Positions 12,025 through 57,484 are shown, numbered from the stretch's first letter. The stretch: DNA of 64,000 nucleotides from Nitrosopumilaceae archaeon (GCA_965214835.1 CBDCCK010000002.1:3104001-3168000), one strand, 5' to 3'. Notes: generated by a model not told the origin, from the sequence alone. Numbers and translations: made by a program.

Positions 12025-12294
12025 CGTCAGGATGCTGTACTTTTACCATTCAACGGTACTGTTCAACGAGTGGATAATTGCCAGGGCGCTGCTCTGCGAT
12101 AGATCCGGGGTGCAGAACGTCATGACGATGCCCGGTGTTCAAGGAGGGTATGACGATCGATATCATGGAGTCCAAACCTCAAACAAGTTTTTTACCCTGC
12201 CCTGCCAACTCTATAACGGAGGGTATGACGATCGATATCATGGAGTCCAAACCTCCCCCATGACGCCGGATTTGGGATACTTTTCACTTAGCTG
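12025..12294 (+). mobile_element. ISH3-like right-end fragment, inverted homologue of 5381-5570
   Basis: Aligns with the reverse complement of 5381-5570 apart from a 75-bp insertion. Confidence 0.8.
12143..12255. repeat. Exact 38-bp direct repeat separated by a 37-bp unique insert
   Basis: ggagggtatgacgatcgatatcatggagtccaaacctc at 12143-12180 and 12218-12255. Confidence 0.95.
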
Positions 12295-12419
12295 GGGCCG
12301 TCCAGGCAGATGCGCTCAAAAATAGAGCAGGGCAGAAGCGGGCAAGAGGAGCTACTCATTGTGCACAGCTGCAAGAAAGGCAGCGAATCCATTCACGCCT
12401 AGCTTGGCCAAAGGCAGGA

Positions 12420-12493
12420 TGGGATTGGCAGGATTTGAACCTGCGACCCCTGGTACCCAAAACCAGGATCATGCCAAGCTAGACCACAATCCC
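12420..12493 (-). tRNA. tRNA-Pro(TGG), intronless
   Basis: Reverse complement gggattgtggtctagcttggcatgatcctggtttTGGgtaccaggggtcgcaggttcaaatcctgccaatccca folds as a cloverleaf with a canonical T-loop. Confidence 0.95.
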
Positions 12494-12793
12494 CAGATTA
12501 CACAGAATCATGGGCCCCAATTTAAGCCTGACACAGTGGTTGCAGGTGCACACTCCCAATCCCGCCTCGCCGTACCTCCATGGCCCTGCACGCAGAACCC
12601 TGCATGGCAGAACCACGTGAAACAGCGACCGCGGTGAGTAGCAAGCACACCTTCAGATGCTGCGACGCGCAAGGCCACGTCTCCCCAGTGGCCATGCAAG
12701 GTCACAGCTACATGCGAGCTCATGCCTAGCTGGCCGAGGATGGGTGCCCGTACACCGGCAGATGATGATTTTAAATAGCAACGCAGCTGAGGC

Positions 12794-13693
12794 GTGTCGT
12801 TGGAAGTAGACGACTATGTCAAGGCAGGAAGGATTGCCGGCCAGGTAAGGGAGGCTGCCAGAGGCAGAAACTGGGTCGGAAAAACGGTTTATGAAATCTG
12901 CCAGGAGATCGAGGGCCAGATTAAAGGCATGGGGGCAAGGTGCGCATTCCCGGTAAACACAAGCATCAACGAGGTTGCAGCGCACTATACTGCAGAGCCA
13001 AACGATGAGCTGACGATACGCGAGGATGATCTGGTCAAGATTGATCTGGGCGCACAGGTCAACGGCTGGATTGCAGATACGGCAGTTACCGTAAACTATG
13101 ATCCCCGGTATGACGGCCTAGTCCGGGCGGCAGAGGAGGCATTGAGCAGTGCGATGGCGCAGGTCAGGGAGGGTGTAAAGGCAAGCGACATCGGAAGGAC
13201 GATAGAGAAGACGATCAAGCAGTTGGGATACACGCCAATAGTGAACCTGAGCGGGCACTCGCTTGGGCAGTACACCATCCATGCAGGCAAGTCCATACCA
13301 AACATCTGGTCAATAGGATCGTTCTCACTGTCTGGCAGGTCGGCATATGCGTGCGAGCCCTTTGTTACGACCAGCCAGGGACTGGGATTTGTCAAGGAGG
13401 GGAAGACAAGGAATATCTTCGCCCTGGTCTCAAGGAAGAGGACAAAGAACGAGGAGGCCGACAGGCTGTTGGAGTTTATCTGGGATAACTTCAACATGCT
13501 GCCATTTGCACTGAGGTGGATAGTCGAGGAATACGAGGAGGGAAAGGCAAGGGAGCTCCTCGAGGTTCTGGTTAGGAAAAAGGCAGTCCAGGCGTATCCG
13601 GTGCTAGTCGAGGGCAACGGCCAAAGGGTGGCACAGGCAGAGCACACCTTCATTCCAAACGAGGCGGGTGCCCTGGTTACAACGGCGGCATGA
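12794..13693 (+). CDS. map: Type II methionine aminopeptidase
   Basis: AFPVNTSINEVAAHYT, KIDLG, ADTA, NLSGH, CEPF, AQAEHT. Confidence 0.95.
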   Translation: MSLEVDDYVKAGRIAGQVREAARGRNWVGKTVYEICQEIEGQIKGMGARCAFPVNTSINEVAAHYTAEPNDELTIREDDLVKIDLGAQVNGWIADTAVTVNYDPRYDGLVRAAEEALSSAMAQVREGVKASDIGRTIEKTIKQLGYTPIVNLSGHSLGQYTIHAGKSIPNIWSIGSFSLSGRSAYACEPFVTTSQGLGFVKEGKTRNIFALVSRKRTKNEEADRLLEFIWDNFNMLPFALRWIVEEYEEGKARELLEVLVRKKAVQAYPVLVEGNGQRVAQAEHTFIPNEAGALVTTAA

Positions 13694-13873
13694 CTATTGC
13701 CTGACGATCTCGCCGTAGATCCTTTCTATGTAAAAGTCGCCGCCGCAGCTGCACGGGCCTGCCCTCGCAAAGACGGTGTCTCCCCGCCGGTATTTCCTTT
13801 TGGTTGATTTTTCACAAGAGTCGCATCCTTCAACGGCATACGCTACGGTGATCTCTTTTTTAGAAAATATCAT
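13694..13873 (-). CDS. Small zinc-ribbon protein (59 aa, below the ORF-track cutoff)
   Basis: MIFSKKEITVAYAVEGCDSCEK..GDTVFARAGPCSCGG..IERIYGE; overlaps the stop of the upstream gene. Confidence 0.7.
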   Translation of the reverse strand: MIFSKKEITVAYAVEGCDSCEKSTKRKYRRGDTVFARAGPCSCGGDFYIERIYGEIVRQ

Positions 13874-14991
13874 TGTGGTACGCCCATCGTATTGCCCACG
13901 CCGATTATGAGTACCGTGTTTGCAGGCTCGGTGTTGTTTTTGATCAGATCATAGACGCGTCCCCTAGCCTCATCGGCCTTCTCGGCAATGTCACGGGTCA
14001 TCAGGGTTATGGCCTCCTTTATGGACTGCTTTACAATCACAGCAAATATTGGAATGCCGCATCTTGCTGCGACCTCCTCGATTTGAAACCTCTCGGTTCC
14101 AACTCCCCCTATTGCCGCCCCAAATCCTTGTGCTATTCCCGCAGAGTCCTCGCCCTCAAACTTTAGTGCGGCATCGACCATGATTATCGCATCAAGCTTT
14201 GTCTCCTTTGCAATTGACTCTAGCGCGTCCGCGGGCCTGCCAACGGTCGACGACGGCCCCTCTGCCTTTAACAGAATCAGCCTTCTGCCTTCATACTCGG
14301 TGCTACTTGAGACGGTTTGGAATGCAATCTCCTTTTTTATAGTATTTAACATCATTTTTCCAACGACCATCGGGCCTATGCCATCCCCAATTGGCTGGCT
14401 CTGCCTAAAAGCAGGGACGGCCTCCTTTAATGCCGTAGCCTCCTCCATTATAAAAGGAAGCATCATCTGCAGCGGCAGGATTAGCGGGTAGTTGTTTTGC
14501 TTTTTTGCAGTAAGGAATAGGTGGTTGACTATCTTGTACAGCAGCTGCAGGGAGGTTGCGATTTCCAGCAGGGTCTGGATTTTGTTTAGTTCGGCATCCG
14601 GGATGTCTGGCATGATTGACTTGATGTTGCCCCGGGTATAGTCCTCCCTGGAGTGGATTGTATGCCTGATTTTTGGGATTATCCCATTTGGATCCAGGTC
14701 AACGGGTGGAATTGTAAAGTACTCCAGAAACTGGTCGATTCTGGCAGAGGGCTCCAGTTTTGGATTGCAGTTTTTCTTCACATAGTCAATCAGCTCGGCC
14801 CTAGTCTCGGCCCGGTACGAGTCAAGCATCCTTATGCTTTTTTTGATCTGGCCGGAGGTAATCTGCAGCTGAATGCGCTGCCCGTAAAAAATGAAGATGA
14901 CCACCGGCAGGATCCAGATAAGCATCATGAAGAGGCTGGTGTCGTCATTGAACCCAAAAAACTCCCCAGCGTCAAAGTCCGTAAAGTTCAC
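13870..14991 (-). CDS. DUF1512-family membrane protein
   Basis: FTIPPVDLDPNGI, PIGDGIGPMV, MVDAALKFEGE, IGVGNTMGV. Confidence 0.85.
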   Translation of the reverse strand: MNFTDFDAGEFFGFNDDTSLFMMLIWILPVVIFIFYGQRIQLQITSGQIKKSIRMLDSYRAETRAELIDYVKKNCNPKLEPSARIDQFLEYFTIPPVDLDPNGIIPKIRHTIHSREDYTRGNIKSIMPDIPDAELNKIQTLLEIATSLQLLYKIVNHLFLTAKKQNNYPLILPLQMMLPFIMEEATALKEAVPAFRQSQPIGDGIGPMVVGKMMLNTIKKEIAFQTVSSSTEYEGRRLILLKAEGPSSTVGRPADALESIAKETKLDAIIMVDAALKFEGEDSAGIAQGFGAAIGGVGTERFQIEEVAARCGIPIFAVIVKQSIKEAITLMTRDIAEKADEARGRVYDLIKNNTEPANTVLIIGVGNTMGVPQ

Positions 14992-15131
14992 TAATTACGG
15001 CGATCAGATATTGCAAATTAAATCATTCGCTATGCGGTCAGAGGGTGGCCTCAGGCACAAAAGGCGCCGTGCCCATTCCAGGCAATTAGCGAGTGCTTTT
15101 ATTATAGTTAATATACGAAAAATCGGAAAAC

Positions 15132-15692
15132 ATGCCACAAACAAAACCCATAGTCAGCGTTGAAAACGTAGTAGCCTCTGCCTCGGTGGACCAAAAGATG
15201 GATTTGAACGAGATTACACGTACCTTTCCAGACGTGGAATATCACCCGGATCAGTTTCCCGGGCTGGTCTTTAGACTGAAGAGTCCAAAGACTGCGACAC
15301 TGATTTTCACATCAGGCAAGATGGTATGCACTGGTTCAAAGTCAGAGGAGATGGCAAGAAAGGCCGTAAAGACGGTTGTTCAAAAGCTTAGAAAGGGCGG
15401 CATCAAGGTCAAAAAGGACGCGGTCGTGGAGATCCAGAACATAGTTGCATCGATCAACCTGGGCGGAAAGATCCACCTAGAGCAGGCTGCCAGGACGCTC
15501 CCAAGAAGCATGTACGAGCCCGAGCAGTTTCCGGGCCTGATTCACAGAATGCTTGACCCAAAGACGGTAATCCTGCTGTTCTCCTCGGGAAAGCTAGTCT
15601 GCACCGGGGCCAAAAAAGAGCCCGACGTTTACAGATCCGTCAACAACCTGCATGCCCTTTTAGAAGAGAAGGATCTCATGATCTATGATTGA
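15132..15692 (+). CDS. tbp: TATA-box binding protein
   Basis: Two TBP repeats: ENVVAS..FPGLVFRL..LIFTSGKMVCTG and NIVAS..YEPEQFPGL..SSGKLVCTG. Confidence 0.98.
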   Translation: MPQTKPIVSVENVVASASVDQKMDLNEITRTFPDVEYHPDQFPGLVFRLKSPKTATLIFTSGKMVCTGSKSEEMARKAVKTVVQKLRKGGIKVKKDAVVEIQNIVASINLGGKIHLEQAARTLPRSMYEPEQFPGLIHRMLDPKTVILLFSSGKLVCTGAKKEPDVYRSVNNLHALLEEKDLMIYD

Positions 15693-15729
15693 CTCATAGG
15701 CCACCTTTCACCTGTTTTTGTTGATCCCA

Positions 15730-16440
15730 GTGGATCGCACAGGCATCATGGAGACAAGATGATTATACTGCAGGATAGTCCAGCCATCAAGGCAAAAGCA
15801 GTCGGGAGTTCAGGGCTTCCGAGCTTGCGCTGATCAGCTCACTGCCGGACAGTGGTGAGGCTAGGCCTCACAGCACATAGGAGCTAGACGTGCAGGCCTC
15901 ATCAAGGACTATAGCTTCAGACAGGCCGTGGGTAAACCAAAGGCAGTGCCTGATCTCGGTACCGCATAACAAGCACGGGCTGCCAGTCGGTGAAAAAAGC
16001 ATGGTCGTTGTCTTTTCTGGCAAGAGCCGGCCCCGGGAGCCGGACACGCTGATGATGCCTACCATATGGTTTGTGACTATGCGCAAAATCTGCATGGCTG
16101 CAAGGACGGTTTCGGTGGAAGGATGCACGGCACGGATGCGGCGCGGGGGTGTTCGGAACAGTGGCAAGCCAGAGTGTGCTTTGATCTGCAAAACAGCATG
16201 ATGCCCCACCGGCATCAGGAGTGAGCATCATCACGTGGCTTGACGGCCTTATTCCAGGCAAGGCATGGGGCGGTGATATGGACGGCATTGGCCTGCTCGG
16301 GAAGATTGTAGGCCTGCCCGGCAGTACAGCACTGCCAGCTGCACGGTTCAAAAAATCGCGGAGATCATCAAGGCAGACATTTGCACGGTGGAGCTTGCGG
16401 CGGGCCGCCGAGTCCCCGGCAGAGCTCAAGGAGAATCCCG
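15730..16440 (-). pseudogene. Highly degenerate transposase-like remnant
   Basis: Only weak motif echoes (HAFFT, CGTEIRHC similar to WGIETGYRC); no coherent ORF. Confidence 0.3.
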
Positions 16441-16452
16441 GCACCAGATATC

Positions 16453-16791
16453 CTATCTTATCCTTGTCCCGGCAGGAACGTCCCCATGCACGGTCAGCCA
16501 AAACGGTCTGTCGTCGACATCAGCTGCTAGCAGCATCGCATCGGACTCGACTCCGGCCACCCTTTTGGGCTCTAGGTTTGCAACTGCGATGACCGTCCTG
16601 CCCACAAGATCCTCGGGCTCAAAGAACTGGGCCCCGCCAATTATGACGGTTCTCTCCTCGCCCCCAAGATCGATTGTTCCCCTGACTATCCTAGTCTTGT
16701 CCGGGATGGGCTCTGCAGATTTTATTTTTGCCACGCGAAGATCCAGCCTGGCAAAGTCATCATATGTTATGGCAGGCATGTCATGCGTCAA
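16453..16791 (-). CDS. tRNA-binding OB-fold protein (CsaA/Trbp111-like)
   Basis: ITYDDFARLDLRVAKI, VANLEPKRVAGVESDAMLLAA. Confidence 0.9.
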   Translation of the reverse strand: MTHDMPAITYDDFARLDLRVAKIKSAEPIPDKTRIVRGTIDLGGEERTVIIGGAQFFEPEDLVGRTVIAVANLEPKRVAGVESDAMLLAADVDDRPFWLTVHGDVPAGTRIR

Positions 16792-16818
16792 TATCCTCCC
16801 GTTAAAATGAATTTCGGC

Positions 16819-17016
16819 TCATTCCAGCTCGGGCCTGGTGGCGCCCGAGGTCTCAATTTCGTATCGTAGTGCGGCAGGCAGATCCTCATATTTTTTATTG
16901 GCAAGAACCGCAATTTGATCCACGGGCACGCCTGCCTTCCTTAGTAGCATGCCCCGCTGATGGGCATAGGCGTTCTTCCAAAAGTTCGAGGCATCAAAGG
17001 TCTGAATTTTTGGCAT
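16819..17016 (-). CDS. Small conserved hypothetical protein
   Basis: MPKIQTFDASNFWKNAYAHQRG..; AT-rich promoter shared with the divergent gene. Confidence 0.6.
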   Translation of the reverse strand: MPKIQTFDASNFWKNAYAHQRGMLLRKAGVPVDQIAVLANKKYEDLPAALRYEIETSGATRPELE

Positions 17017-17083
17017 GTATTTTGAGGGCCTCATGCAGTCATGACGCAAATACAATATATTTAGTGTGTGAGGAAGCCCAGTC

Positions 17084-17500
17084 ATGGCCCGAATCGAGGT
17101 CTCAATGGACATCAACGCGCCTCTAGACAGAGTGTGGGGGATAGTATCGGACATAGACAACGAGCCGGAGTTCTGGAAGGGTACCAAGGAGATCAGGAAC
17201 ATATCAAGGCAGGACGGAAAGATAACTCGGGAGATCACTATTGCGTTTAGGGATCAAAAATGCATGCAGGAGGTCACCATAGAGCCCAAAAGCAGAGTTC
17301 ATGCGGTTTTTACAAAAGGCATCATTGACGGAACCAAGACGGTGACCGTGAGGCCGGAGGGGGAAAAGATCAGGCTGGAGGTAGTATGGGATATAAAGCT
17401 TGCAGGGATGATGGGGATGTTTACGGGAATGATAAAAAAGCACATCAGGGGCGGTACGGAGCAGGCCGTCGACGGCATCAGAAGGGAAGCAGAGAGTTAG
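17084..17500 (+). CDS. SRPBCC/polyketide cyclase-dehydrase family protein
   Basis: IEVSMDINAPLDRVWGIVSDIDNEPEFW. Confidence 0.88.
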   Translation: MARIEVSMDINAPLDRVWGIVSDIDNEPEFWKGTKEIRNISRQDGKITREITIAFRDQKCMQEVTIEPKSRVHAVFTKGIIDGTKTVTVRPEGEKIRLEVVWDIKLAGMMGMFTGMIKKHIRGGTEQAVDGIRREAES

Positions 17501-17503
17501 CCC

Positions 17504-18712
17504 ATGTCGCTACTGGTAGAGGCAGTCAACTATTCCCTGGCCGCAATACTGATGGGCATAGTCGGGGCATGGCTTGTTCTTTTAAGATCTATGCTGGCGT
17601 CTTTCAGGTACACGCCATACCTGGACGGATTTCAAAAAACCAGCCACGGCGCTCCAATGGTGTCAGTAATCCTGCCTGCAAGAAACGAGGAGGGGTTTAT
17701 CGCAAAATGTCTTGGATCCCTAGTCGAGCAGGATTATGAGAACTATGAAGTCATAGCAGTTGATGACTCCTCAGAGGACGATACAGGGGACATCATCAGG
17801 GAATATGCCCGGAAAGACAGCAGGGTCGTACACGTAAGGGCAGGGCAAAAACCGGACGGATGGATGGGCAAGAACTGGGCATGCATCGAGGGCTACAAGA
17901 GGGCCGCCGGGGAGCTGCTGCTGTTTACAGACTCGGACACAAGGCACGAGCCAAACGTTGTTTCGCTGGCAGTAGGGCACCTGCTGTCCTCAAAGCTAGA
18001 CGCGCTGACTGCAATGCCAAAAATGCTGTCGCTGGATTTCTGGACGGGGATTACCCTGCCGGTGATCTCCGTGTTTTTGCATACGAGGTTTTCGGCATTA
18101 AGGGTAAATGATCCTGCAAAAAACACGGGGTATTTTTTTGGCAGTTTTTTCATCATAAGGAGGGAGGTATATGAGGGGGTCGGAACCCACGAGGGCGTAA
18201 GGCAGGAGATCATCGAGGACGGGGCGCTGGGAAGAAAGGTCAAAGAGGCAGGCCATAAAATGAAAATGGTAAGGGGGGACCACCTGATCGACGCCGTCTG
18301 GGCAAGAGACGGGCCGACGCTTTGGAATGCCTTGAAAAGACTGATGATTCCGCTGTATCTGCAAAGCAGCACGGTTGCAGTGGGGGCGTTCCTTGCAGTC
18401 CTGTTTTTGCTCTTTATGCCGTTCCCACTGCTAGGCTATGCAGTATTGGGGTTTGACGGAGGGGCCTCATCTAGCCTGCTACTGCTGTTCTCGTCGCTTG
18501 CATCACTGGTCATTTATGCCGGGGCAGTCATCGAGTCAGCCAGGGGACTCTGCGCAAGGCTGGAATACGCCATGATGTGCCCGCTGGGGGGCCTAGTGGT
18601 AGTCTCGGGCTTTATGTCAGGACTGGTTCGTGCCAAAAGCGATGCAGCAGTTTCATGGAGGGGCAGGATATACTCCATGAAGGATCATGCCCAAAGCGCA
18701 ATCAGTGTATAA
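17504..18712 (+). CDS. Membrane-bound family 2 glycosyltransferase
   Basis: VSVILPARNEE, VDDSSED, GWMGKNWAC, FTDSD, IEDGALG; transmembrane helices. Confidence 0.92.
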   Translation: MSLLVEAVNYSLAAILMGIVGAWLVLLRSMLASFRYTPYLDGFQKTSHGAPMVSVILPARNEEGFIAKCLGSLVEQDYENYEVIAVDDSSEDDTGDIIREYARKDSRVVHVRAGQKPDGWMGKNWACIEGYKRAAGELLLFTDSDTRHEPNVVSLAVGHLLSSKLDALTAMPKMLSLDFWTGITLPVISVFLHTRFSALRVNDPAKNTGYFFGSFFIIRREVYEGVGTHEGVRQEIIEDGALGRKVKEAGHKMKMVRGDHLIDAVWARDGPTLWNALKRLMIPLYLQSSTVAVGAFLAVLFLLFMPFPLLGYAVLGFDGGASSSLLLLFSSLASLVIYAGAVIESARGLCARLEYAMMCPLGGLVVVSGFMSGLVRAKSDAAVSWRGRIYSMKDHAQSAISV

Positions 18713-19368
18713 CCACGACGCTGTCCAGTCATCCCCAGGAACTCCCACAGCCCCAAGCAATTCAGGCTGGGCTGACTGCAGATCCGCATAGTCGCCACGA
18801 GTTGGAGCTCATCAGAGAAGCGATTCGCAATTGGCAGGTTTTGACCCAATTGGGCACAAATCTGTACCTGACGGATCAAGATACGGGCAGAACCGGGTAC
18901 CAAACCATGAAGTTGATCAAGCTGACAAAGCCCACGGGCCGTCCGTATCGCCCTATGAATCGTGATCTTGGAAAAAACCCCGCCATCTGGAGACGCTTAT
19001 CCCCTGTAGGTCGGTTCTGTCAGCTCTGATATGAACTCGTCAAGCAAGCCGATCCTTGCGATTCTGCCAAAGTTGTTTCCGCCATCCGATTCGGGCCTGT
19101 CACTTATGCTCTCACGTCCCCTTGGATACGGTTCTATGCCATCAGGTGCACCTATCCTCTTATCTGCGCCGGTCTCCCTTACGTTCTGCAACCAGAAATT
19201 CCTGTACTCGCAAGAGTATCCCGCCATGTCAACGAGTGGCTTGAGTATGATCGGCTTGCCGGACGGGACGCGGGACAGCCCCATTGAACCAGCATCGCAG
19301 GATCCTTGTCCGTGCATGCGTTCCTGCTCACCCCCAGCCTAAAGATCGGCATTCCCTCCTTGGCCAGT

Positions 19369-19535
19369 AGACCTTATGCGTAATCGGCACAAATCAAAAA
19401 AACCATGCAGTTTTTGCGTCATTTTTGGCAAGTCCGCAAAGGCCCAATGCACGTGCACGGCCACAGCTCCTTGCCGGCCAAGCAAAAATCACAGCAACAT
19501 GCGAGTTCATGTCTGATTGACTAAGGGGGTGACTT
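19369..19535. mobile_element. MITE A-type end followed by a degenerate MITE B-like segment
   Basis: tagaccttatgcgtaatcgg at the start; aaaatcacagcaacatgcgagttcatgtctgattgactaagggggtgac resembles family B. Confidence 0.55.
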
Positions 19536-19565
19536 TACGCTGCCATGTAAGGGTCTGCTTGCAAG

Positions 19566-21053: not shown

Positions 21054-21407
21054 ATGTCGCTAAAACCCAGGCACAGAACAACGGTTTTCCCACAAACAAG
21101 GGTCACCAGAAACTTTCCAAAAAACATCTTTGAGCTTCAAAAATCATTCAACAGCATCGACGATCTTGAAAAATTCCTCTTTCTGGCAGACGCCACCTGC
21201 CGAGACAGGCAGGCTGCAAGCATAGAAAAGGTACATGTGGATATTTTTAAAGAATCCACGGTTGCAAGGACAAAAGTGGCATCCTCACTCAGAGAGACAC
21301 TTGAAATTCTCTTGGACGAGGATCTGGTGAGGCAAATCAAAAAAAGTGAAAAAGACGTCAAGGAGGGCAGGCTGGTTCCGTGGAACAAGGTAAGGGCAAA
21401 TGTGTAA
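21054..21407 (+). CDS. Putative type II antitoxin
   Basis: C-terminal LRETLEILLDEDLVRQIKKSEKDVKEGRLVPW is typical of RelE-neutralising (Phd/YefM-type) tails. Confidence 0.65.
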   Translation: MSLKPRHRTTVFPQTRVTRNFPKNIFELQKSFNSIDDLEKFLFLADATCRDRQAASIEKVHVDIFKESTVARTKVASSLRETLEILLDEDLVRQIKKSEKDVKEGRLVPWNKVRANV

Positions 21408-21679
21408 CATATGCAGTCCGGTTAACCGCTAACTGCCAAAGACAATACAGTAAATTCAAGAAAAAAGGAGACAGGCAGCTCCTAAAAAGACTAACTTATG
21501 CAATTAATGATCTGAGAACAAACCCTCATAGCGGAAAAGACCTGGTAGGTGGCCTTAGAGGACTAAAATCTTCACGTATTGGAGGTTACAGAATAATCTA
21601 TAGCGTAAATGAAAGCCCAGAGTGCCTAGTCATTGTACAGTGCATAGGATCAAGGGACGCAATATACAACCTGTCATAG
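21380..21679 (+). CDS. RelE/ParE-family toxin (start uncertain)
   Basis: YAVRLT..INDLRTNPHSGKDLVGGLRGLKSSRIGGYRIIYSV..IGSRDAIY. Confidence 0.85.
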   Translation: MEQGKGKCVTYAVRLTANCQRQYSKFKKKGDRQLLKRLTYAINDLRTNPHSGKDLVGGLRGLKSSRIGGYRIIYSVNESPECLVIVQCIGSRDAIYNLS

Positions 21680-21694: not shown

Positions 21695-21806
21695 GACGAC
21701 TAAAGCAGTGGGCGCTATATGAAATCTTGCCATGCCAAACATTCCTGCCAGGCGCGCCTCGTTGTAGGAGACGACTAAAGCAGTGGGCGCTATATGAAAT
21801 CTTGCC
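21695..21806. repeat. Exact 37-bp direct repeat separated by a 38-bp unique insert
   Basis: gacgactaaagcagtgggcgctatatgaaatcttgcc at 21695-21731 and 21770-21806. Confidence 0.95.
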
Positions 21807-23395: not shown

Positions 23396-24628
23396 ATGGA
23401 AAGATCCGGCGTGTTGATTGGGGGGGTGTTTAGCGTGGCAGTCGCAATAGTTGCCATCACGGTACTGATGAGTCCCCCCTTGGAGATGCAGTCCAAGGTG
23501 GCAGTTGATGAGGAAATTATCAAGGCGGGGAACGAGACCGTAGCCAAGATCAACACGACGGAACAGGTGGCAGTTGATGAGGAAATTATCAAGGCGGGGA
23601 TGTCGCCCAATTCGCTTCAGGCCGCCTCCGCCGGCGAGGCACAAATCGACATGCTCAGTGAGCTGTCCCTGGTGGAGGTTTTTAGGATGTCAGAGCCGGG
23701 GGTGGTCCAGATTAACGTAAGAAAGGGGATCTCCGACATTTCCGGGATCGGCCTGGGCTCGGGTTTTGTCTATGATGTCGAGGGTCACATAATTACCAAC
23801 GCACACGTGGTTAGAAACGCAGAGGATGTCATCATTACGTTTTTGGATGGACGCTCGTACATCGGACAGGTGATTGGGGCAGACATGGATACCGATTTGG
23901 CGGTGATCAAGTCCGATGCAAACCGCACCACGCTGCACCCACTGCCAATCGGAGACTCGTCAAGGCTCAAAATTGGAGAGCAGATAGCAGCAATAGGAAA
24001 CCCGTTTGGGCTGTCGGGCTCGATGACGTCAGGAATAATAAGCCAGATCGGGCGCCTTCTTCCCCAGGCAACAGGATTCTCAATACCAGACATAATACAG
24101 ACGGATGCGGCCATAAACCCAGGCAACTCAGGCGGTCCTCTAATCAACATGATGGGGGAGGTGGTAGGAGTCAATACGGCAATACAGTCCGCCACGGGCG
24201 AGTTCACCGGAATTGGGTTTGCAGTGCCATCAAACACAATCTCAAAAATTGTCCCGGTGCTGATTTCTGAGGGGGAATACCAGCACCCGTGGCTTGGAGT
24301 CAGGGGAGCCGATATCGGTCCAGAATACGCAGATGTCCTGAACCTTTTGGATGCAAGGGGGTTTCTGATAATGGATGTAATAGACGACAGTCCGGCATTC
24401 AAGGCAGGACTGCAGGGAGCAACGGACACAGTCCAAAAGGACGGGCAGGTCTACAGGATAGGCGGGGATATCGTGCTGTCGGTGGACGGCAAGGAGGTAA
24501 GAAAGATTGACGACATCCTGCTACACCTGCAAAGGGAAAAGGCTGTCGGGGACACGCTGGAACTAGAGGTTCTTCGAGACGGCAGAACCTCCAGCCTGGC
24601 AATCATGCTAGAAGAGCGGCCAGAGTAA
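23396..24628 (+). CDS. HtrA/DegP-family serine protease with PDZ domain
   Basis: GSGFVY, ITNAHVV, DLAVIK, IQTDAAINPGNSGGPL; N-terminal membrane anchor. Confidence 0.95.
   Translation: MERSGVLIGGVFSVAVAIVAITVLMSPPLEMQSKVAVDEEIIKAGNETVAKINTTEQVAVDEEIIKAGMSPNSLQAASAGEAQIDMLSELSLVEVFRMSEPGVVQINVRKGISDISGIGLGSGFVYDVEGHIITNAHVVRNAEDVIITFLDGRSYIGQVIGADMDTDLAVIKSDANRTTLHPLPIGDSSRLKIGEQIAAIGNPFGLSGSMTSGIISQIGRLLPQATGFSIPDIIQTDAAINPGNSGGPLINMMGEVVGVNTAIQSATGEFTGIGFAVPSNTISKIVPVLISEGEYQHPWLGVRGADIGPEYADVLNLLDARGFLIMDVIDDSPAFKAGLQGATDTVQKDGQVYRIGGDIVLSVDGKEVRKIDDILLHLQREKAVGDTLELEVLRDGRTSSLAIMLEERPE
23496..23600. repeat. Exact 36-bp direct repeat separated by a 33-bp insert, in frame within the HtrA linker
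   Basis: aggtggcagttgatgaggaaattatcaaggcgggga at 23496-23531 and 23565-23600 (VAVDEEIIKAG twice). Confidence 0.95.
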
Positions 24629-25834: not shown

Positions 25835-25837
25835 GAG

Positions 25838-49702: not shown

Positions 49703-49788
49703 AGTAGGGTAACTGCAGGTTAGGATTTAAGATTTGAAAAGAAAAAAGTTGTAATAAAGATAACTTGCGTCGTCTAAATTAGATAGAG

Positions 49789-49980: not shown

Positions 49981-50094
49981 GTTGTTACTAGGCTGTAATA
50001 CTCGTCAAATATTAACTAGAGTTTTGGTGCGGCCCTGGGCGGATCGGATTTTGTTCGTAAAACCTTAAAATTTGACTCGTTTTAGGTACATTCA

Positions 50095-50742: not shown

Positions 50743-50750
50743 GTGAGGAC

Positions 50751-51989
50751 ATGGCCGATGCAGACTTTAAGGTTTACAACGCCCGCGTAACCTTCCGCAA
50801 TGTCCCGATCCACAAGCTGTCAAAGTACCAGTTCAAGGACGTAGACGAGGTCGCATCCGAGTTCAAAAAGCTTGCAGACGTATCTGAGTGCCTGATAATC
50901 CAGACTGCAAGCAGGGTCGAGATCTTTGTCGTGACGAACCTAGGCGTCAAGGAGGGGGATCTGCTGACAATCGCAAGGATCAAGGAGATCTGGACCGGAA
51001 GGTCAGACGTGGACGAGTGGGAGGCCGATCACTTTGATCAGACGATGGAGGTATACGTAAACAGGGACGTCTATGAGAACCTGCTAAAGCTGGCGCTGGG
51101 CCTGCAGTCGGTGACCGTGGGAAAGATCGGAATCCTGGAGGAGATCAAGGCAGCAGCTGCCAAGGCAAAGGAGACGGGGGACTCTGGCAGGGTTCTCAAC
51201 AAGCTGTTTGACACGGTGATCAGGGTCTCCGGCAAGATCCGGGCAGAGACTGGCATGAGTCCGAACTGGAAGTCGATGGGGGACATTGCAGTAAAGCTGG
51301 CAGACGAGAACGCGGGAATCGACGGCAAGAAGAAGATCCTGATCCTGGGTACAGGCGAGGTTGCCGCCAGGGTGGCAAAGAGCCTCAACCGCAAGGACAT
51401 AGGATTCAGCGTCGCAAGCATGCAGATCGAGAGGGCCCAGGGCTTCTCCGAGCTGCTCAGGGGCGAGCCCGTTGACTTTAAGGATGTAGTTGCCAACTTT
51501 GACAGGTATGACATTGTCTTTGTCGCGACCACCGCGGATTATTTCATCTTGCAGCACAGCCAGATCAGGAGACAGATGGAGTCAAAAAAGACAGGTACGA
51601 TGATTCTGGACATCTCGGATCCAAGGGCGGTAAGCGAGGACGTCTCGATGAGCCCGGGGGTAAAGCTGATGTTCAGGGATCAGGTAGAGGAGCAGTACAT
51701 GGAGGTTCAAAACGAGGTCCGCTCAAAGATGCCCGCAGTCGAAAAGGCAATCGTAAAGGAGGTGCCGATACTGGAGGCATCGATGAACAGGGTACACGCA
51801 GATGCAAAGGGCGTAGACGTGTTTGCCAAGGTGGATCAGCTAAGGGAGAAGGAGCTCAAAAAGGCGCTAGAGCAGCTAGGCGATCTGGATGATGGCAAGA
51901 GGAAGGTCATCGAGGAGCTGACAAAGTCAGTTGTTGAAAACATCGTCGCGGTTCCCAGCAAGGCAAAAAAGGCCGAGGAAGAATCATAA
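50751..51989 (+). CDS. Glutamyl-tRNA reductase (HemA)-like protein lacking the catalytic Cys
   Basis: HemA architecture (GTGEVA Rossmann, FVATTA, LDISDPRAV); TASRVE in place of TCNRxE. Confidence 0.8.
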   Translation: MADADFKVYNARVTFRNVPIHKLSKYQFKDVDEVASEFKKLADVSECLIIQTASRVEIFVVTNLGVKEGDLLTIARIKEIWTGRSDVDEWEADHFDQTMEVYVNRDVYENLLKLALGLQSVTVGKIGILEEIKAAAAKAKETGDSGRVLNKLFDTVIRVSGKIRAETGMSPNWKSMGDIAVKLADENAGIDGKKKILILGTGEVAARVAKSLNRKDIGFSVASMQIERAQGFSELLRGEPVDFKDVVANFDRYDIVFVATTADYFILQHSQIRRQMESKKTGTMILDISDPRAVSEDVSMSPGVKLMFRDQVEEQYMEVQNEVRSKMPAVEKAIVKEVPILEASMNRVHADAKGVDVFAKVDQLREKELKKALEQLGDLDDGKRKVIEELTKSVVENIVAVPSKAKKAEEES

Positions 51990-52045
51990 TAGGAATTTCC
52001 CAAAGACATGCTGGCAAAAAACTGCACGAGGCCGCCTTGCCTTGG

Positions 52046-52140
52046 CATAGTGCGCACATCAAAAAAAACGGATCACGTCTTTGACATGCCGTGCCTGTTT
52101 CGATAAAAAAAATATCCGGTTTTCAGCTGCACGCACCATA
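52046..52140. mobile_element. MITE family F (95 bp), copy 1
   Basis: Closely similar to 52679-52773; decayed TGT/ACA ends. Confidence 0.85.
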
Positions 52141-52202
52141 GGCTCCCCATACTGTGCGGCAGATTCGGGGATGATCTCGGTATGAAGTTTTGACATGTAA
52201 TG

Positions 52203-52470
52203 TCAGTCCCCGCAGTAGGCTGACTTATCGCACACCCTTAGAAACTCTATCGTGTCAGTGCTCCAGTCAGCATTGTATGTTATTCTGTATTTGCTTCCAA
52301 CATCGTACGCAAGTACTCTTTTGCTCTGTTTGTATCTGCCCAGATGCACCGGGTTTTCAGGCTCCCTTAATTCCTGTATGGCATGGCTTGCCCTTTTTCT
52401 GATTTGAGGATCAGGATTTTTGTACTGTCTGAGAAACTTTGTCTTTCTTGCAGCGTCAAGTGCTGCTCAA
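52203..52470 (-). pseudogene. RelE/ParE-like toxin with early stop and frameshift
   Basis: FLRQYKNPDPQIRKRASHAIQEL..NPVHLG..AYDVGSKYRITY..EFLRVCDK; TTG start followed by TGA at codon 5. Confidence 0.7.
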
Positions 52471-52601
52471 GTCTCTTCCTTGAGTTCTTTCATGAATTCA
52501 TCAAATGACAGTGTTTTTTTGCCTTTGTCATCTGCGTAAAACTCGTCAATATCTCTGACCTCCTCCGGGGTTAGATCATCAATAGGCCCTGTTTCTGACA
52601 C
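52467..52601 (-). CDS. Small acidic antitoxin candidate (44 aa)
   Basis: VSETGPIDDLTPEEVRDIDEFY..LSFDEFMKEL; ggagg upstream; overlaps the toxin start. Confidence 0.6.
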   Translation of the reverse strand: MSETGPIDDLTPEEVRDIDEFYADDKGKKTLSFDEFMKELKEET

Positions 52602-52678
52602 ATGGCCTCCTCCATCCTGTTCCTAAAAAGGATTGTCGTGAGATCAGCTAGGCGAAGAGTGCCCCGGATTTGACGTCA

Positions 52679-52773
52679 TGTAGTGCGCGCATCAAAAAAA
52701 ACGGATCACATCTTTGACATACCGTGCCTGTTTCGATAAAAAAAATATCCGGTTTTCAACTGCACGCACTACA
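52679..52773. mobile_element. MITE family F (95 bp), copy 2
   Basis: TIR tgtagtgcg/cgcactaca; 4-bp TSD GTCA. Confidence 0.85.
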
Positions 52774-52883
52774 GTCATGCACGAATTTGCAGCTGTGGCT
52801 TTCATGCCTGCCCATCAATGGGACATGGCATCATGTAAAAAATCCAGCTTGATGTTTATATTGGGATAGCTTTCACTAGAATC

Positions 52884-53048
52884 GTGCCCAAACTGCGCTG
52901 TGCTGACTACGGATTCGAATGTGAGTTTGAATCAGACGGTGAGACTCAGAAGGTCATCGAGGAGTTTGGAAGGCACACCGAGGAGGAGCACGGCATAGAA
53001 TACTCGACAGAGGTCCTGATGCAGTTCATCCTGAGAAAACAGGGTTAG
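52884..53048 (+). CDS. DUF1059-family small metal-binding protein
   Basis: LRCADYGFECEF..GRHTEEEHG. Confidence 0.8.
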   Translation: MPKLRCADYGFECEFESDGETQKVIEEFGRHTEEEHGIEYSTEVLMQFILRKQG

Positions 53049-53081
53049 AATGGACTTCATATGGTCCCAGAGGACTGAACC

Positions 53082-53927
53082 CTAGCCGTATGACTCGTAC
53101 TTTATGGCATAGCTGCCGTCGGGCTTTTTGTCATGCAGGGTGACGAATCCCTTGTCCCTTACGTGATCGATTACGCCGTCAATCGTGCCTTGGTATCCGC
53201 AGATGTAGATCATGGTATTCTCCGGGGTGATCTCCTCGCCGACGAGCTCCTCCAGTGCAGAGGGCTTGCCCCTTCCCTTTGGCTTGAAGAAGGACTCTAC
53301 CCTCCCCGTATGCCCGGTCCAGGAGCGGTTGAACCACTCCTTTGGCCTGCTGATTGCGGCGCGATACACAAAGTTCCACCTGTCGGCGCCCTCCTTTTTG
53401 CTGAGGTTCTCCAGGTCGGTAAATTCTTCTTTGTAGCTTAGCTCATCTACATAGCTTGCGCCGTGAAGCACGATAATCTCCCTCGTATCCCCTGTCTCCC
53501 TCAGGTGCTTTGCAAAGGCGACAAACGGAGCGATTCCGGTGCCGCCGCCGACACAGACAATCCGCCGCCTGTCCGGCTTTCCGCTTGGCAGTGCATCATC
53601 AATTGTCAGCGCGTTGCCGGTCGGCATTCCGATTCCAATCTTGTCACCCTCGCTTGCATAAAACAGCATGGTTGTAACGCGGCCGGGAAGCGGCTTTCTC
53701 ACCCACCTGATTACGAACTCAAAGTACTTTCTGTTTTCTGGGTGCGACGCTATCGAGTAGGCGCGCCTGACTATTTTATATCCCTCGGCAACGACGGGCA
53801 GAGCCAGTGTCAGAAACTGGCCGGTGATGTATTGGGGCATTCCGGCATCTGGAACGATCCTTATAATCATCAGATCCTCCCTGAGAATTCTGATGTGGGT
53901 GATTGTCGCCGGATAGTCCTTTGCCAT
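53082..53927 (-). CDS. Ferredoxin-NADP+ reductase family protein
   Basis: GQFLTL, RRAYSIAS, GGGTGIAPF, YICG, C-terminal YESYG. Confidence 0.92.
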   Translation of the reverse strand: MAKDYPATITHIRILREDLMIIRIVPDAGMPQYITGQFLTLALPVVAEGYKIVRRAYSIASHPENRKYFEFVIRWVRKPLPGRVTTMLFYASEGDKIGIGMPTGNALTIDDALPSGKPDRRRIVCVGGGTGIAPFVAFAKHLRETGDTREIIVLHGASYVDELSYKEEFTDLENLSKKEGADRWNFVYRAAISRPKEWFNRSWTGHTGRVESFFKPKGRGKPSALEELVGEEITPENTMIYICGYQGTIDGVIDHVRDKGFVTLHDKKPDGSYAIKYESYG

Positions 53928-54000
53928 AATACAGAGGTTCGTGCAACTTTGGTTAAATAGATTTCTGCTGGCCTTGATCGCAAAGAAAGAGAAAAGTGGG

Positions 54001-54423
54001 TTATTTTACGATCAGTACCGGTATGTTGGACTTGTGCATTACCTGGTTGGATACGCTTCCAAGGAACTTTTCCTTGGCGCCGCTCAGGCCCCTGGCACCC
54101 ACTACTATCATGTCGAACCCCCCTTTCTCAGCTGCGCTTACTATCTGGTCCGCAGTATGTCCGCCTCCCGTGGCATACCGGAACTTTGCGCCGGCACGCT
54201 CACACTTTTGCATTGCGGGGCCCACTGCATGTGCGGCCTTGTCCTGCGCCTGGTCTTTCATTGTCTGAGTGTATTTTATTCCAGCCAGCTTGGGTAGGTG
54301 GAAGACATAGTAGGCGGTAATTTCGGCGTCGCTTGCCTTTGCAATCGAGATTGCACGATCCAGTCCCCGCATGGAATTCGGAGAGCCGTCAACAGGTACT
54401 AGGATTTTTTCGAATTTTCCCAT
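54001..54423 (-). CDS. Universal stress protein
   Basis: KILVPVDGS, IVVGARG, LGSVSNQV..PVLIVK. Confidence 0.93.
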   Translation of the reverse strand: MGKFEKILVPVDGSPNSMRGLDRAISIAKASDAEITAYYVFHLPKLAGIKYTQTMKDQAQDKAAHAVGPAMQKCERAGAKFRYATGGGHTADQIVSAAEKGGFDMIVVGARGLSGAKEKFLGSVSNQVMHKSNIPVLIVK

Positions 54424-54623
54424 AAACGGCCAAGCGCATCGCAGTATAAAAATGATAATCACGGCAGCTGGGCAATCGGTCAGGCTAAGCACAAGGCCAA
54501 TTTTTGATCACCACTCGATCTATATGCACTCAAACCACACCTAGATTCATTTCCAGATTGAGGGCAAAATACTGCGCGACGAGCCGGCCCGCGTCATGGC
54601 CGAGTTGGGCAGAAGGGATGAGA

Positions 54624-54697
54624 GTACGAGGTCACCTACCCCCACCAGTCAGGCACGAATTAAATGCATGATTGCGATTTTCGTGCCTAGCTAGCAA
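54624..54697. mobile_element. MITE family B, truncated
   Basis: gtacgaggtcacctacccc...gtgcctagctagcaa matches 7730-7803. Confidence 0.85.
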
Positions 54698-55096
54698 CCG
54701 CAAGCAGATCAGCAGGGTCCGCGTCAGGGTGGAGCACCACATAGGGCGGCTCAAGAAGTACGACATCCTGACCATGCCGTTTGGCGGAACCGCCAGGGAT
54801 CTCAATTATTTCATGCAGGTAATTACGGGTCTTGAGAACCTCAAGGCGATACTGAAAAAGAAAGGGTGCTACGGCCACCTGCTTGAGATATAGCGTACGG
54901 TGGCACGAGCCGCCTTTCTTATGACTTGACAACAGGGCACATCACCGTGCTGCAAGGCCGCGCACATCCTTTTGACATGAACCGATTTTTGTGCGCGTCA
55001 TGACATGTCCGCATGCGGTAGCTTGATCTGATCGATACATCCACGCCCGGAAAACCCCGCGGAGTTTTTAATCCCGGTCGATTACGCATAAGGTCT
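54698..55096 (+). pseudogene. IS5-family transposase C-terminal fragment with right end
   Basis: QISRVRVRVEHHIGRLKKY; terminus cgattacgcataaggtct equals the MITE A TIR. Confidence 0.8.
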
Positions 55097-55162
55097 AATC
55101 GGTTCAGATCCGGGATTATTACGAACAAATTCGCCTCATTCAGGTCGATTACGCATAAGGTC
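55097..55162. mobile_element. MITE family A with left TIR partly missing
   Basis: Matches 58173-58239. Confidence 0.8.
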
Positions 55163-55382
55163 TAGTAGCTACTGCGGTATTGTCACATTCCGTCCTGTCT
55201 ATCCACAGATCCGGCGAATCCAGCTGGTACTCTATGCCTTCGATGGGGGTAGGACGGCTGGTCTGCTGCAACACATGGCAGCGTGGATCGGCACAGTCAA
55301 AGATTCCAAATGCGTCCTGGCCATATGCAACAATACACAGTGCAAAGACTGCAAAAAACAAAACGGGAAGCTTGGTCATCAT
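55163..55382 (-). pseudogene. Secreted protein, truncated by MITE A
   Basis: Signal peptide MMTKLPVLFFAVFALC; the reading frame ends inside the MITE TIR. Confidence 0.6.
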
Positions 55383-56383
55383 TTTACCAACAAGCTGTTA
55401 AAGACGGGCAGCAGCTCATCAAGCGTGTGATAACGTGAATTTACGCTCATCAATGTATGTTCATCATGATGGAAGATAATGAAGGCACGATAGTGATTCA
55501 GAGCATTTCCGCCCTCAAATGCAGCTACCGTTTTCCCGTCACGCGTCATCTCCCTAAAACCCTCCCCGTAGTTGCCGTACTGGGAACCAAAAACTTCTTT
55601 GATATGTTCTATCGTATCTTCAATCTCGTCAAGAGGAACAACCTTATACTCGGCCCAAACCACAAATCCCTCGGAGTGCTTCAATTCGTAGTTAGTCACG
55701 TTTTCATTTAATACAAAGGTAGTCGGAACAAACTGTATCTTCAGGCTGCAGTTGCCTGAAGGGTAACAGGTATTGTCTGCATACAGCAGTCGCTGTCCGT
55801 CGGGAATGTATGTGGGCATCCAGTCCTCAATGTGGAACCCTGCTCCGGGGGTTATGGAGTATTTTTCATGCTGCGTTGCAGGCAGTCTTATCAGGTTGTC
55901 GGGGCCGACATCGTTGGGGGTTATGTCGCTGTCCATGATCGTTTCATAGTAGGGCCACGGGGGAGGGTATCTTGCAAGTGCGGGTCTTTTGATCTCCCGC
56001 CCGTCATCGACAAACTCCACGGGAGACGAGGCACTCAGCACCACAAAGCCGTCGACTTCTCCGGCATCGGGGCCGTCGATGCTGCTGTCGCCTCCGGCTG
56101 CTGCCTCCTCCGGCTGCTGCCGGTCATGGCGTTCTGCTGCCTGTGCTACCGGCACCCATCCCTTTTGCAGCAGTTTTTGCACCGAGCCCTCGCTGATGCA
56201 GGCAGGCGTTCCACGCGTGGTCTCCATCAACGTCTTTGAATCCCGGCACTGTATCTCGTGTATCGGCACCCCAGCCTCATGCTGTGCCATCGGAGACGGC
56301 ACCTCTGCCGTTGCACCGAGCGACAGCATGCCCGCGCCTGCGACAAGGAGCAGTGCAAGAGCGACCGCTACCGCATTCATCAC
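55379..56383 (-). CDS. Secreted hypothetical protein with thaumarchaeal-type two-Cys N-terminal domain
   Basis: Signal peptide; PSPMAQHEAGVPIHEIQC..PACISEGSVQKLLQKGW. Confidence 0.8.
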   Translation of the reverse strand: MMNAVAVALALLLVAGAGMLSLGATAEVPSPMAQHEAGVPIHEIQCRDSKTLMETTRGTPACISEGSVQKLLQKGWVPVAQAAERHDRQQPEEAAAGGDSSIDGPDAGEVDGFVVLSASSPVEFVDDGREIKRPALARYPPPWPYYETIMDSDITPNDVGPDNLIRLPATQHEKYSITPGAGFHIEDWMPTYIPDGQRLLYADNTCYPSGNCSLKIQFVPTTFVLNENVTNYELKHSEGFVVWAEYKVVPLDEIEDTIEHIKEVFGSQYGNYGEGFREMTRDGKTVAAFEGGNALNHYRAFIIFHHDEHTLMSVNSRYHTLDELLPVFNSLLVK

Positions 56384-56414
56384 CTTTCCTCAATACTGAA
56401 ATATTTAAGTGATC

Positions 56415-56557
56415 CAGAGAGTTGGTTCGAAATTAGCAGATTCTGATTATTTGTGAAGGAGTATGCATGAAACAGCTCCAAACATCAACAAAATGCAGAT
56501 TATCTGTGAAATTACTTGAAAAATTCATACGATTTCTAATTTCAGCTCACCTCTCTG
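56415..56557. mobile_element. MITE-like element G
   Basis: Imperfect TIR cagagagttggttcgaaattag/ctaatttcagctcacctctctg; similar end near 60968; no TSD. Confidence 0.5.
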
Positions 56558-56574
56558 CGTACTCCACGTTTTCC

Positions 56575-57484
56575 TAGTCATATCTGTGATTCGACCTCCA
56601 AGCTAAAAAAGTGTGCATTGCAGATCGTTCCTTCTTTTTTGGGATCCGCACCAGCAGGATGCGACCACGTCCACATGGACGAGACGGGGATGCCGTGCAA
56701 CGGCAGGAGCGGCCATATGTGGGTGACAGTGGGCGTCAAGGACGGCGCGCACATGGTGGCGACTGACAGCAGGAGGGCATCCGTACTCAACGAGCACTTT
56801 TCATACGTGCCCAGGGTCGGGGTGACCGACGGATACCCCAGGTACGAAAAGTTCTTCGGCAGGAACCGGCAGCGGTGCTGGGCCCACATTGTCCGGGTGG
56901 CAGGCGCCCAGGGTGAAAAATCGGACTCCCCGGAGGTCTGCGACGCAGGCAGGCGCCTCAGGGAGCAGTTGCACCACGCCAAGGGACTGGGCCGCCGGAG
57001 GGAGCCCGGCAGCGCAACAGGCTGGTGGCAGGGACGCGCGAGCTGGCCGCCGCATACAGGAAGGAAGGATGCGGCAGCTATGCCACAAAGCTTGACAACG
57101 CCTCGGAGTTTCTCTACACGTTCACACTGCATTCTGGGATGGATCCCACCAACAACCTAGCCGAGCGCACGTTGAGGCCCGGCGTGATCGCGCGCAAGAT
57201 ACGGTTCGGACTGCGGGCGGGCAGAAGATGTTCGGCAACATATCGACGTGCATCGTGACATGGCGCCTCCGGGGGTACAACGTGGCGGACATGATCATGG
57301 ACGCGCTGGTTGTCTTGGCAGATGAGATTCGGGCCGGACTGAAAAGGTACAACGTGGCGGACATGATCATGGACGCGCTGGCCAAAAACCCCGGATACGC
57401 GGTCATCTGCCCCTAGCAATCATGTACGGATCTGCATGCAGGTGTGATTTTCATGCCTAGACGGCGGGGGGTCGTGACTTCAAC
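56575..57484 (+). pseudogene. IS66-family transposase remnant with right end
   Basis: VHMDETG, VTDGYPRY, QRCWAHIVR, PTNNLAERTLRPGVIARKI across several frames. Confidence 0.85.
57274..57381. repeat. Exact 36-bp direct repeat separated by a 36-bp unique insert
   Basis: ggtacaacgtggcggacatgatcatggacgcgctgg at 57274-57309 and 57346-57381. Confidence 0.95.

Follow-up and report, generated by a model that had tools for sequence, protein, structure and literature searches.

Spacer-sized insertions outside the CRISPR arrays of an ammonia-oxidising archaeon and their probable origin in off-target type I-G adaptation

In this study, we analysed a 64-kb stretch of DNA from a Nitrosopumilaceae archaeon (G000:C2:3104001-3168000; hereafter the window, with positions counted from its start), which contains four isolated units, each consisting of an exact direct repeat of 36 to 38 nt on either side of an insert of 33 to 38 nt. 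Such units were scattered over the whole genome, and they very probably arose when the resident type I-G CRISPR system, through its Cas4/Cas1 fusion protein together with Cas2, integrated spacers off target, outside the array. The geometry of the units, their empty sites, the sources of their inserts, the PAM (protospacer adjacent motif) and the target motif are seen in the genome, and from them we infer that Cas4/1-Cas2 is the enzyme. An initial annotation of the window had offered two explanations. The first one, relaxed CRISPR adaptation, gained support from the length peak, the single Cas4g/Cas1g with its array, the PAM-bearing sources and the paralogous empty sites; the second one, an undescribed capture system, is dispensable, as a separate integrase is not needed.

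Results

Four units in the 64-kb window

The initial annotation had claimed four exact repeat-insert-repeat units, and all of them were borne out in position, length and genetic context. Site 1 (no strand assigned, as for sites 2 and 3) is a 38-nt repeat at 12143-12180 and 12218-12255, the second copy being 100% identical to the first, around a spacer-sized 37-nt insert at 12181-12217; the 38 nt can be read as 36 nt plus a 2-nt chance extension. It lies in a repeated, insertion sequence (IS)-associated element, four paralogous copies of which have a single repeat copy and lack the insert. The site 1 insert had no second match anywhere in the genome. Site 2 is a 37-nt repeat at 21695-21731 and 21770-21806 (100% identity) around a 38-nt insert at 21732-21769, and is intergenic, downstream of a ParE-like open reading frame (ORF) at 21380-21679. 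Its insert, on the plus strand and of host-chromosome origin, is identical over 38/38 nt to G000:C2:1227786-1227823, where the 5' flank of the source, ...cTTC, provides a TTN PAM.

Site 3 is a 36-nt repeat at 23496-23531 and 23565-23600 (100% identity) around a 33-nt insert at 23532-23564, located within the ORF of an HtrA-like trypsin-PDZ protease (23396-24628), in a linker past the N-terminal hydrophobic segment. Repeat plus insert amount to 69 bp, or 23 codons, in frame, and the insert had no match in the genome. Site 4, on the plus strand, is a 36-nt repeat at 57274-57309 and 57346-57381 (100% identity) around a 36-nt insert at 57310-57345, within a decayed IS66-family transposase region for which 15 paralogous empty sites were found. 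Its upstream flank ends in ...CCGGG, comparable with the CRISPR leader end ...ACGGG. The insert is probably of host-chromosome origin, as it shares 32 contiguous identical bases out of 36 with G000:C2:2431929-2431964, whose 5' flank, ...aTTC, again bears a TTN PAM. The earlier statement that the inserts are unmatched was not contradicted within the window, although the whole genome does match the inserts of sites 2 and 4.

Direct-repeat families with copies at most 200 bp apart numbered five in the window, namely the four units and one other. According to our own arithmetic, an exact 36-mer is expected to recur at one fixed offset approximately 1e-15 times in 3.2 Mb of random sequence; therefore, a chance origin of exact 36-bp pairs is negligible.

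Two further features of the window were recorded. The ORF directly upstream of site 2 resembles a ParE toxin (Pfam ParE_toxin, E = 1.2e-7). An imperfect 27-nt pair at 55071/55138 (55071-55164; 93% identity, spacing 67 bp) does not have the 36-bp geometry and was excluded; it could be a decayed unit or a feature of an IS.

Genome-wide catalogue of the units

The genome comprises 3.22 Mb in two contigs with a guanine-cytosine (GC) content of 52.6%. Its AmoA and ribosomal proteins are archaeal, which makes the organism an ammonia-oxidising archaeon. In a first scan, every exact direct repeat of at least 16 nt with a spacing of 12-400 bp was collected from the whole genome. The histogram of repeat lengths showed a single huge peak at 36-38 nt, mostly contributed by the CRISPR array at C2:2482178-2492954. 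Isolated exact pairs numbered 15, 10 and 4 at repeat lengths of 36, 37 and 38 nt, respectively, and 1-4 at the neighbouring lengths. In a second scan, mismatches were allowed and the spacing was set to 55-100 bp; the spacing peaked at 72-75 bp, and a separate peak at 84 bp came from an unrelated repeated element. The length distribution that had been proposed as a check on the window was thus obtained genome-wide, with a sharp peak at a repeat of 36-38 bp and an insert of 35-40 bp.

The catalogue was built from 92 candidate pairs with a spacing of 64-82 bp, arrays excluded, by keeping those with a repeat of 28-46 nt, an insert of 26-50 nt and no internal periodicity. As a result, 56 units outside the arrays were retained from the whole 3.2-Mb genome, 52 of them unique. 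The mode of the duplication length was 36 bp, and the inserts were 33-42 bp long with modes of 36 and 37. The two repeat copies were perfectly identical in 41 of the 52 unique units. One unit was found identical in four IS copies and another in two, which means that those integrations predate transposition. Four further loci read repeat-spacer-repeat-spacer-repeat (R-S-R-S-R) with the same spacer twice, and these are secondary tandem duplications.

None of the 52 unique units carried two different spacers, and the status of a neo-CRISPR array was rejected for them. Because their 'repeats' are arbitrary and none has gained a second different spacer, the units are unable to serve as CRISPR loci; the stray 'repeats' would be unrelated to the repeat that Csb2 would process.

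The element behind the 84-bp peak has internal repeats at that spacing and is common to approximately 28 loci.

The resident type I-G CRISPR-Cas system

Cas1 and Cas2 each had one match in the genome, and neither contained an internal stop. Both lie at C2:2.48 Mb, approximately 620 kb from the window, in which Cas1/Cas2 matches were absent, in agreement with the initial annotation that no cas gene is visible there. The search for cas1 and cas2 that had been recommended led to a Cas4g/Cas1g fusion (C2:2480012-2481712; 754.8 bits on model NF049935, cut-off 560), followed by Cas2, a 171-bp leader and 148 identical 36-nt repeats ending in ...ATTGAAGC. This main array (C2:2482178-2492954) holds 147 spacers, all different, with lengths of 35-41 nt (36 nt, 45 spacers; 37 nt, 54; 38 nt, 18; 39 nt, 16) and outliers of 26 and 51 nt. 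Among the effectors, Cas3g scored 630 bits (cut-off 400), Cas7g 140.7 (cut-off 38) and Csb2 210.7 (cut-off 45), and Cas8g2 scored 100.8 bits, under its cut-off of 125. Judged from these matches, including that of Cas8g2 below its cut-off, one complete type I-G system is predicted to reside in the genome. The order of the locus is unusual: the adaptation genes are followed by the array, an IS630 transposase and then the effector genes Cas3g, Cas8g2, Cas7g and Csb2.

Several neighbours and relatives of the locus were noted. The IS630-family transposase gene between the array end and cas3g occupies G000:C2:2492980-2493999. Directly after the effector genes, G000:C2:2500864-2504001 (minus strand) encodes a UvrD/PcrA-like helicase of 1045 aa whose C-terminal domain is a Cas4-like PD-(D/E)XK nuclease. 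A few kb from the CRISPR-Cas locus, a 552-aa ORF (G000:C2:2506760-2508418) is weakly similar to TIR-domain anti-phage proteins (E = 1e-6, far under the family cut-off). A second, small array at G000:C2:135821-136367 (minus strand) consists of eight variant repeats with 2-5 mismatches to the main repeat and seven spacers, one of them tandemly duplicated; it has a leader like the main one and no adjacent cas genes.

The geometry of the units matches that of the array

For exact units with a repeat of 36-41 nt, the observed counts at 36/37/38/39+ were 14/11/3/2, and a 36-bp duplication with chance extension predicts 16.9/8.4/3.2/1.5. The duplication length matches the resident 36-nt repeat, and the counts at 37-39 fit chance extension. 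When 36 was subtracted from the spacing of 36 core units, the inserts were 32-40 nt long, most often 36 (14 units), 37 (9) and 39 nt (5). The distribution of insert lengths (32-40, modes 36/37) matches that of the array spacers (35-41, modes 37/36). Duplications of 34-35 nt were found in 7/36 core units. In type I-U/I-G adaptation, spacer-side integration is less precise than leader-side integration, according to two papers (PMC6547450; PMC10274657), and by analogy such imprecision may account for the duplications of 34 and 35 bp.

A-B-A structures, such as in-frame repeats in proteins, can also arise from local sequence by replication slippage or tandem duplication, and the R-S-R-S-R loci with their identical spacer do show secondary tandem duplication. 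The spacing was divisible by 3 in 20/36 core units, and in the window the length of each of the four units keeps the frame, as slippage within proteins would have it. However, the in-frame excess over the array periods (62/147) was not significant either at unique loci (14/22, p = 0.07) or at repeat-borne ones (12/22, p = 0.36). Furthermore, a partial tandem duplication would not fix the A segment at 36 bp, the inserts are wholly absent from the paralogous empty sites, and 13 inserts were drawn from distant loci. We thus regard slippage as extremely unlikely. Selection for in-frame units was rejected on the same comparison with the period distribution of the array.

Empty sites indicate insertion

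The initial annotation had recommended a check for empty alleles. For 22/44 units, the same genome holds one or more paralogs in which the repeat is single and the insert missing. When empty and filled copies were aligned, clean gaps of 72-75 bp appeared at window sites 1 and 4 and at units 717492 and 2950434, and relative to its empty site such a unit is a simple insertion. The flanks of unit 717492 and its empty paralog were 99.65% identical, indicating that this event is recent. In a DNA search of 20 relatives for orthologous empty sites, the sole match was the conserved protease domain downstream of site 3 (69-81% identity), the linker not being conserved. Protease homologues from metagenomes, with 60% identity, were without a 35-residue stretch that holds the 23 added residues of site 3; this gap is consistent with an insertion in a linker that is itself variable.

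The region was present in six public runs from two studies, and the read-level material consisted of Logan contigs (de Bruijn, k=31). The contigs of study P1 join straight across site 3 (X1 and X2, 69 bp skipped) and site 2 (X2, 75 bp skipped), as might be expected if the units were assembly or consensus artefacts of the long-read assembly. Since k=31 is shorter than the 36-37-bp repeat, every word of the empty path should also occur in the filled allele, so that the joins could reflect either true empty alleles or graph collapse of the repeat. The contigs of study P2 (two runs) stop at the repeat borders. Moreover, an artefact would not make the mode coincide with the 36-bp length of the CRISPR repeat, copy inserts exactly from distant loci with a TTN PAM, or place one identical unit in four IS copies, and we give next to no credence to this explanation.

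Sources of the inserts

A near-full-length match elsewhere in the chromosome was obtained for 16/52 unique inserts. Three of these were read from their flanks as paralogous units, which left 13 sources, those of window sites 2 and 4 among them. By comparison, none of the 147 array spacers matched the chromosome in full (13/52 vs 0/147, Fisher p = 8e-9). TT occupied positions -3/-2 on one flank of 8/13 sources (null rate 0.119, p = 3e-5). TTN is the PAM published for the Cas4/1 fusion of type I-U/I-G systems, in which a 36-bp spacer is predominant (PMC6547450). A shared PAM had been suggested as a check on the inserts, and the type I-G PAM was indeed borne by the genomic sources of some of them; for the identified sources, the inserts appear to derive from protospacers flanked by the PAM of the resident system.

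The interval C2:900193-906409, in and beside orc1/cdc6 and the PolD small subunit, contains four of the 13 sources, all within 6 kb of orc1/cdc6. The cumulative GC skew reaches its maximum at C2:900498 and its minimum at 2.36 Mb. In a simulation, the probability that any 4 of 13 points fall within 6.3 kb was 2.5e-5. Of the sources, two belong to IS sequences present in several copies, and one is located 15 kb away from the array. This pattern resembles that in Pyrococcus furiosus, where most new spacers come from the organism's own DNA and where oriC, transposons and CRISPR loci are the hot spots (PMC5737086). There, however, arrays were deep-sequenced from culture, whereas the present inserts are fixed off-array and presumably free of autoimmune selection.

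The GC content of the source-less inserts was 52.5%, the same as that of the genome, and that of the array spacers was 47.9% (p = 0.01), suggesting that most stray inserts are host-like DNA and that the array holds foreign DNA. Self-targeting spacers were presumably purged from the working array and tolerated at the stray sites, where no CRISPR RNA (crRNA) would be produced. The inserts of sites 1 and 3, two of the 36 source-less ones, gave 0 matches in viral_contigs when exact matches were sought.

Array spacer 41 matches the second, 13-kb contig (G000:C1:6366-6401, 36/37), in a large glycosyltransferase ORF. The contig was considered as a virus or plasmid hit by this spacer and rejected; besides glycosyltransferases, it encodes a laminin-G protein and transposases (IS66 and IS110), and nothing evident marks it as a mobile replicon.

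Target sites and genomic distribution

GG stood immediately upstream on one side of 9/13 exact 36-bp units (background 0.135, p = 6e-6), and the junction GG|G was present in 8/13 (background 0.032, p = 1e-9). The leader ends in ...ACGGG| in this genome and in ...CAGG| in two congeners. For 28 exact units, the likeness to the leader end plus repeat was slightly above that of random DNA (Z = 3.6). These motifs suggest that the target sites frequently mimic the junction between leader and repeat (GG|G). According to PMC6698737, P. furiosus Cas1-Cas2 performs off-target full-site integration in vitro where G/C residues sit one repeat length apart, and the motif at the leader-repeat junction matters for integration. 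Similarly, GG|G is enriched here at one of the two borders, which lie 36 bp apart. Unlike those experiments, which used plasmids, a 30-bp repeat and an unfused Cas4, the present events occurred in vivo, in the chromosome and with a 36-bp ruler.

Repeated DNA holds 37/56 units (66%) compared with 246/600 random 500-bp windows (41%), and this modest enrichment is in line with units surviving better where the site is neutral. The stretch of 300 kb on the upstream side of the cas locus holds 14/43 units vs 4.0 expected; this interval was picked post hoc and contains the GC-skew minimum. As a property of the genome itself, the repeat load is extreme: the 246 random windows are those with a paralogous match of at least 150 bp.

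The share of units in repeated DNA also bears on whether they are footprints or target-site duplications left behind by a since-excised mobile element, for example an IS, a casposon or a miniature inverted-repeat transposable element (MITE). Cas1-family casposons are known in related archaea, and their target-site duplications are approximately 14-15 bp long. The Cas1-family integrase is what casposons would have in common with the present units. However, apart from the Cas4/1 fusion of the CRISPR locus, neither a Cas1 nor a casposase was found in the genome, and the casposon lead of the initial annotation is thus irrelevant. The inserts are 33-42 bp long rather than kilobases and are all different (52 unique), the repeats among them being copies carried along by IS transposition. 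In addition, no terminal inverted repeats were noticed in the inserts, and some inserts exactly reproduce sequence of ordinary chromosomal genes. The probability of a mobile-element footprint is accordingly minute, and the casposon was rejected.

Proposed mechanism

If the units arose by off-target integration, the complex would capture prespacers mostly from host DNA, including DNA near the replication origin, and the Cas4 domain would trim them at the TTN PAM. Cas1 would then join both 3' ends to opposite strands of the target, 36 bp apart, which is the spacing normally measured across the CRISPR repeat, and gap repair would duplicate the 36 bp on either side of a 33-42-bp insert. The target would be ordinary DNA instead of the leader-proximal repeat, with a junction that often mimics the leader end (...GG|G...).

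Several observations speak against this proposal. The link between the integrase and the sites is drawn from the genome sequence. An identifiable source exists for only 13/52 inserts, and strict TTN is absent from 5/13 sources. The GG motif is absent from 4/13 exact 36-bp sites, and the overall likeness to the repeat is weak. In the eight units with a strict PAM, the orientation of the PAM and that of GG agree in two and disagree in two, and four have no GG; no coupling between PAM orientation and the GG motif was seen. Two congeners, G003 and G004, have an intact Cas4g/Cas1g and 36-nt repeats, and in partial samples no unit was found, either in 800 kb of the approximately 4.3 Mb of G004 or in 400 kb of the approximately 2.3 Mb of G003. 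Finally, the list of units hangs on thresholds of our choice, by which 36/92 candidate pairs were dropped. The dropped pairs comprise repeats that are tandem or of low complexity, the array of palindromes at C2:34-36 kb, genes of the collagen-like and acidic-repeat types and pairs whose exact core is shorter than 28 nt; a few of them, for example 558201 (36+36, exact), 608098, 1995606 and 2707231, may be genuine units.

The indirect link between Cas4/1-Cas2 and the sites, together with the congeners that have the same module and no units in the sampled DNA, would leave room for a different, undescribed integrase or fragment-capture system with its own 36-bp ruler, independent of CRISPR-Cas. 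Such a system would need to coincide in repeat length, in the distribution of spacer lengths and in the TTN PAM of type I-G. The genome contains a single Cas1-family protein, in a survey of integrases limited to the Cas1 family. We consider a separate integrase very improbable, and off-target integration by the resident Cas4/1-Cas2 remains the preferred explanation.

Abundance of the units in this genome

Every 400-kb block of this genome contained 1-10 units. Since the samples of the congeners contained none, a type I-G system alone is not sufficient for units to appear. Within the same genus, the sampled GC content was 37.6-38.8% for G004:C1 and 64.7% for G003:C1, vs 52.6% here.

The ribosomal-protein operon (L3 ... 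S4e, L5, L6) is broken after L6, and cas4/1 begins 618 bp downstream; the broken operon and cas4/1-cas2 occupy G000:C2:2478837-2482006. L32e, which normally comes after L6 in the archaeal operon, lies approximately 2 Mb away at G000:C2:320148-320465. By analogy with the E. coli experiments, read-through over-expression of cas4/1-cas2 is a plausible cause of the abundance, and weak purifying selection in an IS-laden genome is another candidate. We favour a mixture of a raised off-target rate and weak purifying selection.

A more far-reaching proposal is that off-target integration is a continuing, locally biased mutator activity and not a rare historical accident. The activity would have been switched up when a rearrangement put cas4/1-cas2 behind the broken ribosomal-protein operon. 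It would prefer the 300 kb beside the cas locus and the skew-minimum region (possibly the terminus), an interval chosen post hoc. It would still be polymorphic between populations, provided that the contig joins at sites 2 and 3 are true empty alleles, and it would disrupt ISs and add in-frame peptides, for instance the 23 residues in the HtrA-like protease. Taken together, these points make a possible but doubtful case. If it were true, the stray units would be a general, readable and selection-free record of naive CRISPR adaptation in wild genomes.

Relation to known systems and significance

Off-target integration by the type I-E Cas1-Cas2 of E. coli and the generation of 'neo-CRISPR' loci were reportedly described by Nivala, Shipman and Church in 2018 (Nat Microbiol). 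In that work, Cas1-Cas2 is said to have been over-produced and oligonucleotides supplied; the target was reportedly duplicated over a repeat-length stretch, and the sites are said to share features of the leader-repeat region. The natural evidence in it, as others describe it, was circumstantial and came from two species. The present units resemble those events in that spacer-sized DNA stands at non-CRISPR chromosomal sites, a part of which may have features like those of the leader-repeat region. They differ in that approximately 50 natural events are fixed here, in an archaeon and with a type I-G Cas4/1 fusion; self-derived sources, a PAM and a hot spot at the origin can also be read from the record, and no unit has grown into an array.

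The resident system shares the Cas4/Cas1 fusion, the TTN PAM and the predominant 36-bp spacer with the type I-U/I-G adaptation described in PMC6547450 and PMC10274657. Those studies treat integration into arrays, unlike the stray units, and 'off-target' is not a term used in PMC10274657. Our literature search, which did not extend to supplements or to Nivala et al. 2018, turned up no natural record described at this scale, from an archaeon or from a type I-G system. The mechanism, off-target activity of Cas1-Cas2, is already known, and the units represent neither a new kind of system nor working neo-CRISPR arrays. What appears to be new is the scale and setting: approximately 50 natural events in an archaeal type I-G background, with sources, PAM, motif and hot spot readable from one genome.

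Off-target Cas1-Cas2 integration is known from over-production in E. coli and in vitro. The approximately 50 fixed events measure the ruler of the integrase (36 bp), its sloppiness (34-35 bp in 7/36 core units) and its residual preference (GG|G). The off-array inserts show what adaptation takes up without purging selection: the DNA is mostly host-like, has a TTN PAM and a source hot spot at the origin of replication, whereas 0/147 array spacers match the chromosome. Insertions in genes and mobile elements, in-frame ones included, can therefore stem from CRISPR adaptation. The search recipe is portable: isolated direct repeats of CRISPR-repeat length with a gap of spacer length can be sought in any genome.

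Palindrome locus

At G000:C2:34441-35722, 13 perfect copies of the 22-bp palindrome AATGTGGCAATATTGCCACATT are spaced 72-253 bp apart (mostly 73 or 105). No copy of it occurs elsewhere in the genome, and the locus could be an orphan CRISPR-like array or an iteron set.

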